DNA from: Lysobacterales bacterium
GTDB lineage: Bacteria; Pseudomonadota; Gammaproteobacteria; Xanthomonadales; SZUA-5
Assembly: GCA_022844165.1 (NCBI GenBank)
Contig: JALHMH010000041.1
Location: 1-39,481, forward strand
Length of the DNA stretch: 39,481 nucleotides
Direction of reading: 5' to 3'
The notes below the pieces were generated by a model that made no database searches, was not told the origin of the DNA, and saw only the letters and a program-made list of their open reading frames with translations. Made by a program: the position numbers and the translations under genes. Every line of letters begins with the position of its first letter. Position 1 is the stretch's first letter. This document shows, one piece after another, positions 12,328 through 27,022 of the stretch.

Positions 12328-14631
12328 TCACTCGAAGCCGCCCTGCCATCCGCCGCCGTGAATGCCGTCGCCGCGTACGGTTAATCGGTACAGGTCTGGC
12401 AGTGCATTCTGATCATCGGCGCTGATGCTGTTTTCCGTCCCAATATTGAGCCACGTGCCCTGGGATTGACCTGCGTCGCGAACTGCATTCACCGTCGCAC
12501 TGCCGGTCACGAATTCGTCGAGGAGCGTGTCGTAAAGGCTTAAACCCAGCTGCGATGAGCCCAATCCCGCGACAAATTCGACATACCGACCGTTGGCGCT
12601 CAGGCGCATGTTATTGGATGACACCGGCAATTGGCGGGCGCTCTGCAATTTGAGATCGCGCAACCAAACAGAGCCATCCTGCGGCCTGACAAACAGCGAA
12701 AAGCGCAGTTCGCGAGAAAGTGTCGATATCGTGGGCAAACTTGTACCGCCGAGCGGATCGAAGGTTGTACAACCGCCTGTGGGCAGGTTGTCGAGACTAA
12801 AAAGGAATCGCGGACAAAGCGAAACGAACTCGTAAAGCACGGTGGAACCATCCGTGCTGAACTGGAAGACCGGCCATTGCTGCCATTGCGCAGGCCACAG
12901 GCGCCGCGTTGTACCGCTGCTGCGTTCGCGTACGTACCAAATCAGCTGCGGGGCAGTAGCGCCAGACAACACCTGGCTCGGCGATGAAAAAACGACGCGG
13001 CGGCCATCGTCCGACACCGCGGCGAATCCCGGGTCCCCGTACTCCAGGTCCGACTCGATGCCAGCGCTGGTGACGTTCACGCGCTCGATGACCGAGGTTT
13101 GCCGATCCACCAGAAAAACATCGCGCTGGCGATTGCTGTCGCCAGCGACCAGGTGATCGGCGGTCGACGAAAACAGCACGAATCGGGCATCCCCCGAAAC
13201 ATCAAGCAGCTCAATCGTTCCGTTGATCGGCAGGGGCACATCGAGAACGCGCTGGATGACGCCGCTGTCCATGTCGCGGACGAACAGATCGGTGCTCGTC
13301 GCAGAGGTGTCGGCTCCGGCCACGAGATTACTTGCGTTGGAGGCGAAGAAAACAAAGCGACCATCGCGCGACTCCGATCGCTGTGCCGTGGCTGACTGAA
13401 TCGTGCTGCCATTGGCGCTGAGCGTTGGCGTTGGGTCGAAGGGTCCGACCACCAGCTCAGGCGTTGCCATTGGTCCGGTTGCCCGCAGCAGATCGATGTG
13501 GTGGTTGCGATCGCCGTCGAAGGGTTGTGTGGTCTGCACAAAAAAGGCCCCGGAGTTGCCGACGCCGTAGGCAAACACATCGTCTCGCGGCATCCGCACC
13601 GCGTTGGGTGCCGTCATGTCTCGGTAGTAGGTTCTGAAGTCCAGAGACCGAAAAACGACGGCGTCGAACCGATATTGATCGAAGTGAATGTGGCGAGCGT
13701 CGGGGCTGATCTGGAGGTAAGAGGATTCGGTGCCCGGCGGCGGTGATACGCCAGCTGACACCCACTCGAACTGCTGATTGAGCGCATCGAAACGATAGAT
13801 GGCGGGCGAAGTGGTGACACCCGGAATCAGGTTGGTCGACGTCGAGTTGAAAACGACGTACCGGCAATCGGCACTGATGGCGGGCAGACCCCTGGACGCG
13901 CCGCCGGCTAACGGAGCGTCGATCGCAAACTCGCTCCCATCCGGCCGGTGTAACCAAAGTTCGTTGTCGCGATTCGAGAACGTGAAACAATTCGGCGTCT
14001 CGGACAATCCGAAACCGTCGTGGTTTGTCACCGGTTCGACGGTGGCCAATTCAGTGACGATGTTGGCCTCGAAGTCCAGGTTCAGCGCCCGTGTTTCGTC
14101 GGCACCACCGGCGATCCAGTCCGCTCCGCGCGTCGCCAAGATCTGAACCGATCGCCCGTTGGCGGCCACCTTTGGTGTGAAGTAGTCAGCGGCGCCCTCC
14201 AGGCTGACCGGCGTGATCCGGACGAAGCTACCGTCGGTCATGTCCTTGCGATAGATCGCCTGCGTCGTCGTGCCCGGCATCAGATTGGTCGCAGAGCTGG
14301 AAAAGACCACATATCGACCGTCGTCACTCGCCCCCATCGCCACAGAAACACCGTTGCCGATCTCGCCGTTGTGCTGCGACACGATGATTCGCTCACCAGT
14401 GAGCCGATCGAAGCGGACCACCTGGAAAGAGCCGCTCGGGTTGCCCTCGACCAGATTCGTCGATCGGGTCGAGAAAACCGCGTAGCGCCGATCGGCATGG
14501 TCGAAACCAGCACTGACGCCGGCATCGGTGCTGGGTTCGCCAGGCGCCGCTCCTTTGGAGATCAGCGTTATCGAACTTGCAGCAGCGGAGGAAGTGAACA
14601 CAACCAGCGTAGTGGTAAGAATCAGGCGCAT
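12328..14631 (-). CDS. Secreted TolB-like/PD40 double beta-propeller protein
   Basis: Signal peptide; repeated S.DGR[YF]VVF.S.A.NL and GD.N...D[VL]F motifs; C-terminal ...DGIHGGGWQGGFE. Confidence 0.85.
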   Translation of the reverse strand: MRLILTTTLVVFTSSAAASSITLISKGAAPGEPSTDAGVSAGFDHADRRYAVFSTRSTNLVEGNPSGSFQVVRFDRLTGERIIVSQHNGEIGNGVSVAMGASDDGRYVVFSSSATNLMPGTTTQAIYRKDMTDGSFVRITPVSLEGAADYFTPKVAANGRSVQILATRGADWIAGGADETRALNLDFEANIVTELATVEPVTNHDGFGLSETPNCFTFSNRDNELWLHRPDGSEFAIDAPLAGGASRGLPAISADCRYVVFNSTSTNLIPGVTTSPAIYRFDALNQQFEWVSAGVSPPPGTESSYLQISPDARHIHFDQYRFDAVVFRSLDFRTYYRDMTAPNAVRMPRDDVFAYGVGNSGAFFVQTTQPFDGDRNHHIDLLRATGPMATPELVVGPFDPTPTLSANGSTIQSATAQRSESRDGRFVFFASNASNLVAGADTSATSTDLFVRDMDSGVIQRVLDVPLPINGTIELLDVSGDARFVLFSSTADHLVAGDSNRQRDVFLVDRQTSVIERVNVTSAGIESDLEYGDPGFAAVSDDGRRVVFSSPSQVLSGATAPQLIWYVRERSSGTTRRLWPAQWQQWPVFQFSTDGSTVLYEFVSLCPRFLFSLDNLPTGGCTTFDPLGGTSLPTISTLSRELRFSLFVRPQDGSVWLRDLKLQSARQLPVSSNNMRLSANGRYVEFVAGLGSSQLGLSLYDTLLDEFVTGSATVNAVRDAGQSQGTWLNIGTENSISADDQNALPDLYRLTVRGDGIHGGGWQGGFE

Positions 14632-14834
14632 AGGGGACCGTATCGAGGGAGCTATGTCTAGAGAATCGAAAAATCGGGCCGAATCGGCTCATTGCCAGGC
14701 GGATCAGAAGCACTGAGGGCGCCGATGGCGACTTCCTTGCAGCGTCGGTATCGCAAGGACCCATCGCGGCGTTGCACATCCGCGCAATGGTCGCGCTGAG
14801 CGCGCCAAAAGCCTCTCGGTGCTATCGGGGCGAA

Positions 14835-17800
14835 CTATGCCGCGCGACCACGCACCTGGCTCGGCGGAACGCCGTAACGCACCTTGAATGCTCGCGTAAA
14901 GCTCGACAGGCTTTCAAAGCCGCTGGCGTAAGCGATCTCGGATACATTGCCTGCGCCTTGTTCAAGCAGCCGGTGTCCGTGTGCCAAGCGAGTGTCGCGC
15001 AAGTAGTCGCTCGGGCTCTGGCCGAGCAGCTCTTTGCACTTGCGGAACAGCTGCGTTCGGTCGGCGTGCATGGCTTGCGACAGTTCTTCGATGCCGAATT
15101 GTGGTTCATGCAGATTCGCCACAATGCACTGGTCCAGGCGCTGCCGCCAACGTGTGTCTGGGGTCTCGATGGTCCCCGTGGGCGCAGCTGGCGCCGCGGC
15201 GGCGAGCCGATGCTGTAAGCGCCGCGCGTGCGCGACGATCGCCTCGCAGCGCGCCAGCAACTCGCTGGAATCAAAGGGTTTGGCAAGGTAATCGTTGGCG
15301 CCCGCCTGCAATCCAGCGACCGCGTGCTCGCTGCCCACTTTGGCCGTCAACAGCAAGATGCCGATCGCTTCGGTATCGGCGTGGCTGCGCAGACGCCTGG
15401 TCAACTCCACGCCATCGCAGCCAGGCATCATCACGTCGGAGACGATCAAATCCGGTAGCTCATCGCGCGCCCGTTGCCAGGCTTGATCGCCGTTCGCTGC
15501 CTCGATCACCTCGTAGCGATGACCGAGCACATCGCGCACGCGCAGACGCAGATCGTCGTGATCGTCGACGATCAGCACGCGCTCGCGCCCACTGCGCGCT
15601 TCGCCGTCGCTACCCTGTGGGTCGCGCCATGGCGCGACGCTTTTGTCTGTTCCGGGCAGCGTGCCATCCGTCTCCGGGGCGACGGTGTGATCGGTTCCCA
15701 ACAGCGTTCCCTCGGTCTCCTGCGCGACGCTTTGGCTGGTGATTTCCCGCGCCTTTTCTGCTGTCTCGTCGAACGCAACTGGCGAACCATCGCGCGGCGC
15801 ATCCGCAGAAGTCGGCGGGCTGCCGGGAACAGCTAACAGCGTCGCGCCATGGCGCGACCCACGGGTGTCGTCGGCGGCGACCGGCAGTCGCAACACAAAG
15901 CTGCTGCCGACCCCGAGCGTACTCGTCGCGGTCACCTCCCCTCCGTGCGCGAGCGCTATCTCACGCACCAGCGACAGCCCGATGCCATAACCACTGGCGC
16001 GGTCGCTGCCATCGGTTTGGAAAAAGCGATCGAAGACGTGGGGCAACGCGTCGGGTGCAATGCCGCGACCCTGATCGCGAACAGCGATGGACCAGACCTG
16101 TTCCTCGCGCGCCAGTGTCAGCTCAATGGCCGTACCGCGCGGCGAGTACTTTGCCGCATTGCTGATCAGGTTACTCAACGCGCGCTCGATCTGCAGCGGA
16201 TCGATGACACACGGTGCGCGATCGAAACCACCGCAGTCCACGCTCAATTGTTGGCCGAATCTCGCCACCAGCGGCGCGTTTTCGGCAGCGACATGTTGCA
16301 GCAACGGCAGCAGATCGTGCGTGGCCGAAGACAACGTCAACTGCCCCTGCTCCAGGCGATTGACATCCAGCAACTCGACGATCAAATCCAGCACGCGCCG
16401 CGCATTGCGCTGCGCCAATTGCAGCTGCCCACGCACGCGTTCCGAGAGTCGCTCGCGCGCGTCGCGCAGCAGATCGTCGATCGGGCCCAGGACCAAGGTC
16501 AGCGGTGTGCGGAACTCGTGGCCGACATTGATGAAGAACTGCGTCTTCAGGCGGTCGACAGCGAGCAGGCGTTCCGCTTGTTCGGCAAGTTGCAGGTTCT
16601 TATCGTGCAATTCCGTCGTTCGCGCGGCAACCGTGGCCTCAAGTTCAGTTTGGCGCATCAGCATTTGCCGTTGCCGACGACGAGCGCCGAGCCGGGCCGC
16701 CAGCGCCAGCGCACAGCCGGCGACGAGCGCGTACAACGCCAGCGCCCACCACTGCCGATACCAGGGCGGCGGTACCGAGAACGTCAGCAGTTCCGCTTGC
16801 GAAACCCGTCCCCAGGCATCTCTACCCTCCACTTGGAATGCGTAACGGCCCGGCGAGAGATCGGCAAACTCGAACTCGCTACGAGATGACCACGGCGAAA
16901 ACTCATCGCTGAATCCGGCCAGGCGAAAGCGCAGCGCATTTCCCTCCCGCCGTTGCATGGCCGGCAGCGCGAACTCGATTCGTACGCGCGAATTTGGCGA
17001 TGCCTGCCAACGCTTCAACGGCAGTGGCTCGCGAGTTCGATCGTCCCAAAGGCCAGTCAGAATCGGCGTGACCTGGGGAAGGTGACGGCGCTGCGCTGCC
17101 AGATCGATGCGCGCGACGCCATCGTATTTCAGCACCCACAGGATGTTCCCCTCGCGTTGGAAGTAGCGAACCAACATTTTCGGGTCGAGCGCCGCCAGCG
17201 GCGTCGCGTCCCATCGGAAGGTTTTGCCCTCGCGCCAGGCAACGCCCAGATGCGTAGGGCTCTGCATCCAGAGATGGCCTTCATCGTCTTCCACCAGCTC
17301 GTCGATCGGACCGGACCGCATATGCACAGGCAACTCTGCGGCAGGTACAAAACGACCACCCGTGGACAACCGGTAGACGCCATCGCGCGTTCCCGCCCAC
17401 AATGCATTCGGCCCTCGCCGCAAGAAGAATTGCCCAGCAGGCAGGCCGGTATCGGTCACCCACTCCGGTGCCAGCCATTGGCCATCGGGTCCTTTGCGCA
17501 TCCGCGAGAGCTGGCCGTTGTCGCGATGCATCCACAGCTCGTCGCTGCTCGCTTCGACCACATCGGTGAGCGCGTGTAGCGGCAAAGGCAGGGGCGTAAA
17601 CGTGGCCCCATCGGCACCGGCAGCCACCGCGGCGAGCTTGCCGCCGATCTGCGTATACATGAGGTCACGGTTCAGCCGGGAAGGCGATAGGTGGCCTGTT
17701 CCAGCGATCAGCAGAGGAGCACTCTCCAGATCGGAAAACTCGCGAAAGTCCGAGCCCATGGTGTAAAGGCGCGGGCCACGCACCATGACATAACCCACCT

Positions 17801-18950
17801 GCAAGTCGGCGGCAGGTTGGTATGGCCGGAACTGTGCCGGATCGACGCTGGTGTCGAGCGCCAGCATCCGGAACTGCGAGCTGATGAAAATACGGTCGCG
17901 CCAGCGCTCAAGGCTATTGACCCGGGCACTGCCGAACTCGGGCCCGTAAAAAGTGGTCGCGCTCGCTTGATCGATGCGCGTGATGGTGTTGGTCTGCGTG
18001 ACCCAAAGACCGCCCTGCCGATCTTCGGCGATGTCGATGACCGCGGTTTCGCGAAGTCCGGCCTTCTCGCCCAGGTGCTGGAGCGTTCGACCGTCGGCAT
18101 CGACGATGGTCACCGGACCGCGCTGGAAACCGAGCGCATAACGCCCGCCGCTGATCGCCTGAAAGGCGCTGGGCAGCTGACGTCGCCGTAAATCCTCTCC
18201 GTCGGCCCAGACACGGGTTCCTCGACCGCCAGCGAGCAAACTGGCGCGACCACCGAGCTGAATCGCAAGAAACCGCCCGTCCTCAAGCGGGTGGATGCCG
18301 ACCATCAGTTTCTGTTCGATATCTTCGACAGGCGCCAGAACGTCGAATGCGGGTGGCCCGCTTTCGCTGACTTTGAAGATGCCCTTACCGGACAGATACA
18401 GAACCAGCGTATTGCGATGCGACACCCAGCCGTTGGCGGGCGCCAACAATTCGACGACCGGCTCGGCCGTGTCGTCGGGGACGAACAGCAGCTTGGTCTG
18501 CGCCACGAACCAGATGCCGTGGCGCACATCGTCGTAGTTCTGCCCAAACACTTTGTTGAATTCGCGCATCGCCGGGGGCAGGCGCTCTTGCAGCGAATGC
18601 CAGCGGTAGCCGCCGTCCGGTCGCGGGACGAAGCAGCCGATTTCTCCCGGGTACCCGCCGCAGAACTCGCCCTTCGGAGTGCGCACCATGCGCAGGAAGC
18701 CCGTATTGCCGAGCGGATGTTCGTACAGGCGCCAGCGTGCGCCGTCGAAGATCGCCAGGCCCTTGGTGTTGGACACCGCGATGCGCCCGTCGTCGAGCGG
18801 CAGAACGTTACTGGAGCCCGGATGGCCGCCGAAGCTTGCAGGCCGATGGACTTCAATGGCGGGCCACCCCAACTCGCCGCCGGCCGCCGGCAGCGATCCG
18901 ATCAACAGCCAGAGGGCTGCAGCTAACGCCCGATAGACTTTCGACGTCAT
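14835..18950 (-). CDS. Hybrid two-component system: periplasmic beta-propeller, Y_Y_Y, TM, HisKA, HATPase, REC, AraC HTH
   Basis: Signal/TM at the N-terminus; DRQGGLW-type propeller repeats; Y_Y_Y (FADLSPGRYAFQVEGRD); PPWY-TM; HEFRTPL; NAAKY, DQGRGI, GIGL; VDD...DVMMP...KPF; C-terminal AraC (GFESLSSFTRAFK). GAGGA RBS before ATG 18950. Confidence 0.93.
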   Translation of the reverse strand: MTSKVYRALAAALWLLIGSLPAAGGELGWPAIEVHRPASFGGHPGSSNVLPLDDGRIAVSNTKGLAIFDGARWRLYEHPLGNTGFLRMVRTPKGEFCGGYPGEIGCFVPRPDGGYRWHSLQERLPPAMREFNKVFGQNYDDVRHGIWFVAQTKLLFVPDDTAEPVVELLAPANGWVSHRNTLVLYLSGKGIFKVSESGPPAFDVLAPVEDIEQKLMVGIHPLEDGRFLAIQLGGRASLLAGGRGTRVWADGEDLRRRQLPSAFQAISGGRYALGFQRGPVTIVDADGRTLQHLGEKAGLRETAVIDIAEDRQGGLWVTQTNTITRIDQASATTFYGPEFGSARVNSLERWRDRIFISSQFRMLALDTSVDPAQFRPYQPAADLQVGYVMVRGPRLYTMGSDFREFSDLESAPLLIAGTGHLSPSRLNRDLMYTQIGGKLAAVAAGADGATFTPLPLPLHALTDVVEASSDELWMHRDNGQLSRMRKGPDGQWLAPEWVTDTGLPAGQFFLRRGPNALWAGTRDGVYRLSTGGRFVPAAELPVHMRSGPIDELVEDDEGHLWMQSPTHLGVAWREGKTFRWDATPLAALDPKMLVRYFQREGNILWVLKYDGVARIDLAAQRRHLPQVTPILTGLWDDRTREPLPLKRWQASPNSRVRIEFALPAMQRREGNALRFRLAGFSDEFSPWSSRSEFEFADLSPGRYAFQVEGRDAWGRVSQAELLTFSVPPPWYRQWWALALYALVAGCALALAARLGARRRQRQMLMRQTELEATVAARTTELHDKNLQLAEQAERLLAVDRLKTQFFINVGHEFRTPLTLVLGPIDDLLRDARERLSERVRGQLQLAQRNARRVLDLIVELLDVNRLEQGQLTLSSATHDLLPLLQHVAAENAPLVARFGQQLSVDCGGFDRAPCVIDPLQIERALSNLISNAAKYSPRGTAIELTLAREEQVWSIAVRDQGRGIAPDALPHVFDRFFQTDGSDRASGYGIGLSLVREIALAHGGEVTATSTLGVGSSFVLRLPVAADDTRGSRHGATLLAVPGSPPTSADAPRDGSPVAFDETAEKAREITSQSVAQETEGTLLGTDHTVAPETDGTLPGTDKSVAPWRDPQGSDGEARSGRERVLIVDDHDDLRLRVRDVLGHRYEVIEAANGDQAWQRARDELPDLIVSDVMMPGCDGVELTRRLRSHADTEAIGILLLTAKVGSEHAVAGLQAGANDYLAKPFDSSELLARCEAIVAHARRLQHRLAAAAPAAPTGTIETPDTRWRQRLDQCIVANLHEPQFGIEELSQAMHADRTQLFRKCKELLGQSPSDYLRDTRLAHGHRLLEQGAGNVSEIAYASGFESLSSFTRAFKVRYGVPPSQVRGRAA
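15617..15862. repeat. REPIN-like inverted pair of GTGG-led palindromes inside the HTCS coding sequence, with internal 45-bp tandem units
   Basis: GTGG+GTCGCGCCATGGCGCGAC at 15617-15638 and inverted at 15841-15862. The 44-nt arms match at 40/44. Degenerate 45-bp units at 15631-15675 and 15676-15720. Confidence 0.8.
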
Positions 18951-19040
18951 GATGCGCGATTCCTCATCAGCGAGACCGACCAAACCGGGACGCCTCGAAG
19001 CCCGCCGCGATCCTTCGCGTTGCTGCAGGAGATTTACGAC

Positions 19041-27022: not shown

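Follow-up and report, generated by a model that had tools for sequence, protein, structure and literature searches.

A short C-terminal GFE tag on exported proteins of a Lysobacterales bacterium: a candidate sorting or retention signal

Three otherwise unrelated exported proteins encoded on one 39,481-nucleotide stretch of DNA from a Lysobacterales bacterium (contig JALHMH010000041.1 of assembly GCA_022844165.1; the whole stretch, our contig C41, is called the window below) carry the same short peptide of the form FxxGFE, which raises the question of what such a peptide does there. An initial interpretation made from the letters of the window (the sequence-only reading) had proposed a portable export or retention tag. 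We followed this up in the host genome (G000; 4.68 Mb, 60.5% GC, 59 contigs), in related genomes and in protein families. The tag proved to be real, selected at the protein level, independent of fold, enriched on proteins with signal peptides and usually placed at the very end of the chain. We give a probability of roughly one half to the reading that it is a portable sorting or retention tag read by a lineage-specific receptor.

The three tag sequences lie exactly where they had been placed, on the minus strand, which had been left unsaid, and the domain content of the proteins is also as described (Table 1). The CSLREA-repeat protein has three matches to CSLREA_Nterm (TIGR04214, E 5.6e-21), begins with the signal-peptide-like sequence MKRVFAAWLLVIVA and ends in a tag that fits the genome-wide logo given below. 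The PD40-like protein ends in a variant, GDGIHGGGWQGGFE; its own PD40 match is sub-threshold (E 0.0064), and its homologues carry PD40 families. The chitin-active enzyme has the Pfam domains LPMO_10 (90-269), fn3 (298-380) and Glyco_hydro_18 (392-778), and its tag is internal.

To count tags across the genome we used a crude set of 3383 genes, called with a home-made heuristic based on codon log-odds and greedy removal of overlaps, and scored a gene as tagged if its product ended in [LIVMFA][FLIVM]xxGFE plus 0-5 residues. There were 72 such genes: in 53 the chain stops exactly at the motif, and in 19 it runs on for 1-5 residues, frequently S, G, SP or GP, which recalls the long form of the tag described below. 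Eight further genes have looser GFE ends, the window PD40 gene and its paralogue on contig C44 among them; at least one of these eight, the cytoplasmic Era GTPase, is a false positive. The products of 59 genes finish in GFE, where 359 occurrences in 1,415,823 residues would lead one to expect 0.86, a 69-fold excess, whereas the reversed control EFG is terminal in a single gene. Similarly, among stop-to-stop open reading frames (ORFs) of at least 300 amino acids (n = 3097), GFE is the commonest terminal tripeptide, with 59 cases, and the runner-up has 12.

The 53 exact cases define a consensus of about nine residues, D-x-[LVIM]-[FL]-[AR]-[NDS]-G-F-E-COOH. Counting back from the C-terminus, E (-1), F (-2) and G (-3) are invariant (53/53 each), position -4 is N (35), D (11) or S (7), position -5 is mostly A (32) or R (7), position -6 is F (42) or L (10), position -7 is L (29), V (14), I (6) or M (4), and position -9 is D in 28; upstream of these positions there is no information content. 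The underlying DNA varies freely. All four Gly, both Phe and both Glu codons are in use, with synonymous variation at every position, the stop codon is TGA (25), TAG (19) or TAA (15), and the tag is kept in the low-GC relative G031, where its codons are AT-rich. This freedom of codons and stop codons places selection on the protein and rules out a DNA repeat or a read-through signal.

These data bear directly on the idea that the motif has no function. On that view it would be repetitive DNA, a signal for read-through or recoding, an artefact of gene calling or the remnant of a lost downstream jelly-roll domain of which only the first strand was left. A likeness to such a strand had been proposed in the sequence-only reading, and a few proteins do have a further domain after the motif. 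However, besides the varied synonymous codons and the use of three stop codons, the tag persists across GC contents, is in 69-fold excess at the exact terminus and is conserved inside orthologous families across 40-75% identity; dozens of independent truncations at one residue are not credible. The jelly-roll likeness found no counterpart among solved structures: in a search that is weak for a motif this short, a profile of 27 long tags compared with all PDB chains (E <=10) returned only a WD40 hairpin, at a non-significant E of 0.18. We consider the no-function idea already refuted for practical purposes.

The proteins that carry the tag look exported. Under a strict heuristic, signal-peptide-like N-termini occur in 49 of the 72 tagged proteins and in 577 of 2984 others (odds ratio 8.9, p = 1e-18); a permissive heuristic gives 68/72 and 1193/2984. 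The sequence-only reading had proposed genome-wide enrichment on signal-peptide proteins as one point on which it could fall, and this attempt at refutation failed; the portability that it had drawn from three genes holds over 72. A lipobox-like motif is found in six of the 72. When the 72 and the eight looser cases were taken together, Pfam identified M14, S8, M12B and M28 peptidases, endonuclease I, esterases and GSDH among the enzymes, and CotH, FG-GAP, Sortilin/BNR, beta-helix, DUF5122 propellers and Big/Ig/cadherin/Calx-beta adhesins among the others, which is the content of a typical secretome; 33 of the 80 had no Pfam match. The domain that precedes the tag varies from protein to protein, and may be Calx-beta, fn3_6, Big_3_5, DUF11, Endonuclease_1 or Peptidase_S8.

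The aberrant tail of the window PD40 protein had been taken for a degenerate or partly duplicated form. It does depart from the canonical tag, but it is not noise. The pattern G[IL][FH]G[GS]GWQGGFE ends all six of the closest homologues (P0127, P0154, P0156, P0177, P0204 and P0208), so that the window tail is a conserved derived variant, and a tail of the GDGIHGGGWQGGFE type is also present on the paralogue on C44. In the PD40 family as a whole, 25 of 119 members end in tags (21 short, 4 long), the distant members having canonical forms.

The internal copy in the chitin-active enzyme is likewise conserved. In homologues that combine LPMO10 and GH18, the motif occupies the same alignment column in six of six (five canonical, one ...GFQ), although the linkers that flank it differ among the six, and it is absent from 114 GH18 homologues without an LPMO. 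This places the internal copy within the LPMO module and under selection. Internal copies in the genome generally sit at domain borders or right after the signal peptide, next to linkers rich in Pro, Thr, Ser or Gly, in the arrangements BNR-tag-Reelin-like, S8-tag-domain, signal peptide-tag-sulfatase and LPMO-tag-fn3-GH18. Together with the 19 of 72 tags that have extra residues, these copies exclude a strict reading in which a free carboxylate is what counts. The sequence-only reading was partly supported, and to it are now added the 72-gene scale, a long form of about 19 residues and the conservation of the internal LPMO copy.

Whether the tag is simply a strand of each protein's own last domain, a second point on which the sequence-only reading could fall, was addressed with two AlphaFold2 models, and in neither is this so. 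In an M12 peptidase (alignment of 30 sequences, mean predicted local distance difference test score, pLDDT, 67), tag residues 437-446 have pLDDT <50 and form no strand. The model of the LPMO-GH18 protein was built from 20 sequences, has a mean pLDDT of 63 and is poor in the LPMO half. Its tag, at 229-238, falls within an unstructured segment, 224-241, also with pLDDT <50, which separates the final strand of the LPMO domain from the first of fn3.

To follow the tag across genomes, we searched with the DNA pattern F-x-[ND]-G-F-E-stop, for which our own base-probability estimate gives about 0.07 chance matches per genome. The genome counts are underestimates, because the pattern misses tags with residues other than F at -6 or other than N and D at -4; related genomes in the samples are not independent. 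Among 39 relatives, 36 have 1-65 short tags against 0-1 for the reversed-pattern control, whereas the complete genomes G023, G028 and G034 have zero matches. When 301 genomes of the class were sampled from about 215 families, at a completeness of >=90%, only G000 had more than two matches. An evenly sampled census of 119 genomes of the order, with terminal E or D allowed, gave matches in every genome of families f1 (12/12, 13-56 copies), f3 (7/7, 3-28), f4 (14/14, 8-65), f5 (2/2; 6 and 27), f6 (2/2; 5 and 5), f9 (10/10, 8-41) and f10 (14/14, 1-59). Matches are scarce in f2 (1/15, a single match), f7 (6/14, at most 3 copies) and f8 (7/14, at most 6), and f12 is patchy (6/14, 0 to 31 copies). 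The tag is therefore found in most families of the order, is near-absent in three and is at chance level in the 300 other genomes sampled from the class. Carriers named in protein or contig titles include Dokdonella, Tahibacter and Marinicella, and metagenome-assembled genomes (MAGs) labelled 'Xanthomonadales', 'Lysobacterales' or 'Rhodanobacteraceae', in line with the earlier statement that such tails are common in Dokdonella, Tahibacter and related lineages.

A second, longer form of the tag was found in Acidobacteriota. Its consensus is ΦFxDGFESGDTxxWSxxxP, about 19 residues (FxDGFESGDTxxWSxTxP in the sampled copies), and the short form stops exactly where the long form goes on with SGD...W. 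By this comparison the window tag reads as the first (truncated) half of a longer C-terminal tail of a few Acidobacteriota lineages. The pattern F-x-[ND]-G-F-E-x-G-x4-W has 56 copies in a Holophagae genome and 49 in a Thermoanaerobaculia genome; two other Acidobacteriota have 11 and 7, and Tahibacter caeni has none. Conversely, the short pattern has 7 copies in Tahibacter and 0-2 in those Acidobacteriota genomes. In 150 further Acidobacteriota genomes the long form has 89, 48 and 5 copies in three, one copy in five and none in 142. The distribution is thus all-or-none for both forms. Of 40 long motifs sampled (20 from each of the rich genomes), 37 are C-terminal, and 27 stop exactly five residues past the Trp. 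Scanned singly, the 27 long tags of the profile mentioned above gave no Pfam family.

The two forms meet in the M12B peptidase family (query L035, P0007), where 108 of 119 homologues have a tag-like end: 34 are canonical short tags, 45 are one-letter variants (mostly ...GFD) and 29 are long tails in which a few residues follow ...ΦFxDGFExGxTxxW. Where an fn3 domain has been inserted, the tag is retained at the new end. Moreover, the same C-terminal slot holds other modules in other phyla, according to labels that come from reading the sequences by eye and not from a domain search: tails appear T9SS-type (type IX secretion system) in Ignavibacteria and Bacteroidota, SLH-like in some Acidobacteriota, and composed of dockerin-like repeats in Planctomycetota, Holophagae and Acanthopleuribacter. 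Thermoanaerobaculia and Holophagae have the long tag, and Tahibacter, Dokdonella, Marinicella and Lysobacterales MAGs the short one. The shared slot would place the tag among sorting and anchoring modules, although this is guilt by position and not proof.

As a separate observation, eight of the 11 M12B homologues that have no tag-like end (P0050, P0065, P0075, P0085, P0087, P0090, P0109 and P0124) share a different tail of about 27 residues, V-T-L-R-A-G-x-V-V-L-x-x-G-F-x-V-x-x-G-x-x-L, also present at the Thermoanaerobaculia locus L105. It may be another unrecognised class of tail.

The sorting or retention reading draws on the independence of the tag from fold, its exclusively exported cargo, its on/off distribution at many copies per genome and the slot that it shares with known tail modules. 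A tagged protein would first be exported by Sec and fold; its flexible tail might then be bound non-covalently by a lineage-specific component of the envelope, which would either hand the protein to an outer-membrane exit route, possibly the Xps-type type II system, or hold it at the surface or in the matrix. The tag would thereby take the part played in other phyla by T9SS C-terminal domains, SLH domains or dockerin-like modules. Recognition cannot hinge on a free carboxylate alone, given the internal copies and the long form, and because nothing lies downstream of the short form there would be no energy for transpeptidation, which makes a sortase-like reaction unlikely.

How far does the tag resemble systems that are already known? 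Like the T9SS C-terminal domain, it is C-terminal, lineage-restricted and found on dozens of Sec-exported hydrolases and adhesins of many folds. However, the T9SS signal folds into a domain of its own, roughly 70-100 residues in size, whereas the GFE tag has 9 residues (19 in the long form), matches no Pfam family and is modelled as disordered; T9SS C-terminal domain models found no match on the three window proteins or the 80 tailed proteins. With the tripartite sorting signals (PEP-CTERM/exosortase, GlyGly-CTERM/rhombosortase, IPTL-CTERM and LPXTG/sortase) it shares a short C-terminal signature on many unrelated exported proteins and a sporadic, many-to-one phyletic pattern, CSLREA proteins being a shared type of cargo. 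The tripartite signals, in contrast, require two elements downstream of the motif, a transmembrane helix and a cluster of basic residues, and a membrane enzyme cleaves them. The GFE tag has neither element, as the sequence-only reading had noticed: the stop codon follows at the E or at most five residues on, the chain ends in Glu (Asp in variants) and Lys is depleted upstream. Indeed, a scan of G000 for a transmembrane helix plus a basic tail picks out IPTL-like proteins and not the GFE-tagged ones.

SLH domains and dockerin-like repeats resemble the tag in occupying the same slot in M12 homologues, as judged by eye, and both dock non-covalently, but they are folded, tens of residues long and have known partners (a cell-wall polymer and cohesin, respectively), whereas the GFE tag is a linear motif of a few residues. 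Being a C-terminal peptide of small size with conserved aromatics, exactly terminal in 53 of 72 cases, it also recalls PDZ-type ligands and the beta-signal of outer-membrane proteins. The beta-signal is a feature of beta-barrels and has an aromatic residue in last position; the GFE tag, in contrast, ends in Glu with F at -2, and its cargo consists of soluble enzymes, repeat proteins and adhesins. As for PDZ ligands, whose recognition depends on the free C-terminal carboxylate, the exact termination of 53 tags speaks for such a likeness, and the conserved internal copies, the copies right after signal peptides and the 12-13 residues that the long form adds beyond GFE speak against it. Overall, the tag would be a putative C-terminal sorting tag that works most like a T9SS C-terminal domain or a PEP-CTERM-class signal, yet it fails the features that define the T9SS and PEP-CTERM classes, namely a folded domain, a transmembrane helix and a basic tail.

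The internal copies and the long form also suit a different account, in which a lineage-specific periplasmic or extracellular protease cuts at the motif and so frees modules (the LPMO from fn3-GH18, for instance), trims ends or removes a short pro-segment. The short form would then be a 'pre-cut' long form, and the mature proteins of both phyla would end in ...GFE. Such cleavage agrees with the constant position of internal copies at domain borders beside Pro/Thr/Ser/Gly linkers, with the nature of the 1-5 extra residues on the 19 extended tags, with the short form ending exactly where the long form continues SGD...W, and with an all-or-none distribution, which is expected if a specific enzyme is needed. 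On the other hand, 53 proteins already end at the E and leave nothing to cut while still conserving the nine-residue pattern, internal copies show no residue preference after the E, no candidate protease was identified, and the position of the tag equals that of binding and sorting modules in other phyla. We consider a processing site rather unlikely.

The composition of the tagged proteins points to another alternative. They are long (median 705 amino acids against 360) and contain little Lys (0.7%, against 2.6% in other genes) or Glu (2.7%, against 5.3%); in the 40 residues preceding the tag, Lys is at only 0.13-fold. One possible reason for the Lys and Glu depletion is adaptation to a protease-rich exterior. 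The tail might then be a protective or structural cap without any receptor, which shields ends and linkers from the cell's own exoproteases, carboxypeptidases and tail-specific periplasmic proteases. Ends in Glu, Asp or Pro are poor substrates for carboxypeptidases A and B, and the short form ends in Glu or Asp and the long form in Pro; further points in favour are the depletion itself, the many tagged peptidases in the genome, an M14 carboxypeptidase included, and the lack of a partner among the candidates discussed below. However, a cap needs a terminal residue or two, which leaves the invariant G and F, the hydrophobic pair at -7/-6 and the D at -9 unexplained; nor does it account for the conserved internal copies and the copies right after signal peptides, and it can hardly explain an on/off pattern between sister genera of f12. 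This makes a cap decidedly unlikely.

If the sorting or retention reading is correct, its receptor should follow the tag from genome to genome. G000 encodes PilMNOPQ, an Xps-type type II secretion (T2SS) operon and a separate GspC-GspD pair. We compared six machinery candidates with the distribution of the tag, using single-protein queries, which can overlook distant homologues. Secretin copy number (PF00263) is 1, 4 and 3 in tag-free G023, G028 and G034 and 1-5 in tag-bearing genomes. The GspC of the pair on contig C16 is present in G028, G032 and G033, which are tag-free or tag-poor, whereas the query did not detect it in G029, G030 and G031, which bear the tag. The Xps-type marker T2SSM_b (PF10741) occurs in 37 of 39 genomes, tag-free G028 and G034 among them; it is present in 33 of 34 tag-bearing relatives, the sole miss being a 71%-complete genome. 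A 558-residue exported ORF is found in 11 of the 12 sampled families of the order (not f2) and often adjoins the Xps secretin gene. It is present in tag-free G028, its matches reach 11 (G036) and 10 (G033) with no relation to tag number, and four Acidobacteriota genomes that have the long tag gave nothing beyond one marginal match (E 2.6e-4). It was thus rejected as a partner; it is an unannotated T2SS-linked family. The neighbouring 195-residue lipoprotein-like ORF has the same pattern in f12 and was rejected too. Finally, a 906-residue ORF is present in 33 of 39 related genomes, tag-free G028 included, and was not found in the two f2 genomes, in G029 or in Acidobacteriota.

Two leads of another kind were also set aside. 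The S-layer protein NpdA is reported in Wenzhouxiangella, Dokdonella and Tahibacter; by the table of the same paper it occurs in nine gammaproteobacterial orders (PMC10765051), and NpdA is therefore too widespread to be the partner of the tag. In addition, the paralogues L095 and L092 (Table 1), which have no Pfam match, carry a tag-like motif internally, at residues ~420-440, and in L095 it runs on in the manner of the long form (...GFETNDTGGNW...). The idea of a 'parent domain' was dropped, L096 having no paralogue and the L095/L092 motif representing one family with one position; it gave no receptor lead.

Table 1. Positions of the tags, of the genes that carry them and of other loci discussed in the text.
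Feature	Location	Strand	Remarks
Derived tag variant GDGIHGGGWQGGFE and stop codon	C41:12328-12372	-	C-terminus of the PD40-like protein; from translation
Gene for exported PD40/TolB-like propeller protein	C41:12328-14631	-	767 aa; from translation
Hybrid histidine kinase / response regulator / AraC protein	C41:14835-18983	-	1382 aa; between two tagged window genes
Canonical short tag DAVFANGFE and stop codon	C41:19430-19459	-	C-terminus of the CSLREA-repeat protein; from translation
Gene for exported CSLREA-repeat protein	C41:19430-23137	-	1235 aa counted from the MKRVF start; stop-to-stop ORF extends to 23620
Gene for LPMO10-tag-fn3-GH18 chitin-active enzyme	C41:24767-27040	-	757 aa as in database cluster P0246; alternative ATG start at 27022
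Internal tag copy NLLFANGFE	C41:26327-26353	-	After ...PGGGSGA, between the LPMO10 module and the fn3 domain; from translation
195-aa lipoprotein-like ORF	G000:C3:221616-222200	+	Neighbour of the 558-aa ORF; also downstream of the Xps secretin gene
558-aa exported ORF	G000:C3:222338-224011	+	Downstream of the Xps secretin gene; no Pfam or NCBIfam match
906-aa ORF	G000:C39:7885-10602	+	Downstream of pilQ; no Pfam or NCBIfam match
Paralogue L095	C17:27839-30184		Internal tag-like motif
Paralogue L092	C1:104768-107653		Internal tag-like motif
RAYT-like family member	C3:14384-15577		Example
RAYT-like family member	C28:58625-59665		Example

The type II system nevertheless deserves separate mention. 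Tagged proteins resemble its substrates in having a Sec signal peptide and in being folded hydrolases, and the genome has the Xps-type system; type II substrates are not known to share a linear signal. The tag needs more than a T2SS to explain it, since G028 and G034 have the Xps system and no tag. A stronger version of the sorting idea would make the tag a true linear export signal, sufficient for outer-membrane passage of folded, Sec-exported proteins in Xanthomonadales-type bacteria and some Acidobacteriota, and the route could be the Xps-type system via an unrecognised adaptor or else an undescribed translocon. We regard this as a tentative and rather unlikely possibility.

The lack of a protein partner would also be expected if tagged proteins were retained by a non-protein ligand of the envelope or matrix, such as lipopolysaccharide, exopolysaccharide or a divalent-cation bridge. 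The long form offers three aromatics (F, F, W) with D, E and D, and the short form F and F with D and E; the tolerance of the tag for position agrees with such binding, as do the M12 relatives in other phyla whose tails look, by eye, like SLH or dockerin-type anchoring modules. However, the ligand itself would have to be lineage-specific to give the on/off distribution, and nine residues are very short for specific glycan binding, so that this explanation seems improbable to us.

Several results weigh against a sorting or retention tag with a receptor of its own. None of the six machinery candidates tracks the distribution of the tag; the docking by beta-strand complementation onto a receptor or secretion component that the sequence-only reading had imagined is a hypothesis. 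Six 20-kb tag neighbourhoods in the small complete genome G026 showed no recurrent candidate by crude ORF calling, and the neighbours of tagged genes in G000 are enriched only for regulators and transposase-like genes, not for machinery. About 10 genuine-looking copies are internal or directly follow a signal peptide. The all-or-none pattern could stem from a lineage-specific protease environment and not from a receptor. Both AlphaFold models are moderate, which makes the failure to model the tag as a strand weak evidence, and the gene calls and signal-peptide calls are both home-made heuristics.

The tag is apparently undescribed: neither Pfam nor NCBIfam gave us a model of it, and we came across no solved structure or paper, although an earlier mention could exist. 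Scans of the three window proteins and of four proteins with long tags against NCBIfam showed no model for the tag. The strings FANGFE, DGFESG and NGFESG did not occur among the matches listed from the main texts of open papers, and GFESG, DGFES and further motif strings gave unrelated papers only, again among the matches listed. Literature combining sorting signals with CSLREA and Xanthomonadales yielded only the papers on PEP-CTERM (PMC1569441) and GlyGly-CTERM (PMC3237569) and an unrelated Geobacter paper.

What would follow if the sorting or retention reading holds? Each genome of the rich carriers, in two phyla that are far apart, has roughly 50-90 exported proteins with the tag, which is too short for the usual libraries of hidden Markov models. 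LPXTG, PEP-CTERM, GlyGly-CTERM and T9SS tags each led to dedicated machinery once they were recognised. As an address label, the GFE tag would let sequence alone define the secreted or surface proteome of many proteolytic and chitin-degrading bacteria from the environment, most of them uncultured, would provide a nine-residue handle for engineered secretion or surface display, and would render the choice of folded proteins for outer-membrane passage directly testable. The on/off contrasts between sister genera of f12 and among Acidobacteriota are what the search for a partner needs. If the tag were also a linear export signal, it would be the first portable one for type-II-like cargo, with a many-to-one receptor that phylogenetic profiling could find. 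Even as a mere cap or cleavage site, it would be a widespread unannotated feature that gene callers and domain databases have missed.

Finally, the surroundings of tagged genes hint at how they are regulated. Within three positions of tagged genes, proteins combining Pkinase and TPR domains are enriched (15 of 43 family members, p = 2e-5), as are extracytoplasmic-function (ECF) sigma factors (Sigma70_ECF; 7 of 21 members), which suggests that the tagged secretome is under ECF-sigma and Ser-Thr-kinase control. A RAYT-like family of 13 members, which resembles REP-associated tyrosine transposases only weakly and falls below the NCBIfam cut-off, has five members near tagged genes (examples in Table 1). 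In the window itself, a large hybrid two-component regulator is encoded between two tagged genes. G000 also contains about a dozen proteins, named by eye, with IPTL-CTERM-like ends (an IPTL or IPVN motif, a hydrophobic helix and RR), on contigs C56, C25, C26, C18, C4, C7 and others, and the window CSLREA protein has the GFE tag in place of such an end; going by these by-eye names, a classical transmembrane-type sorting signal appears to coexist with the GFE tag in this genome.

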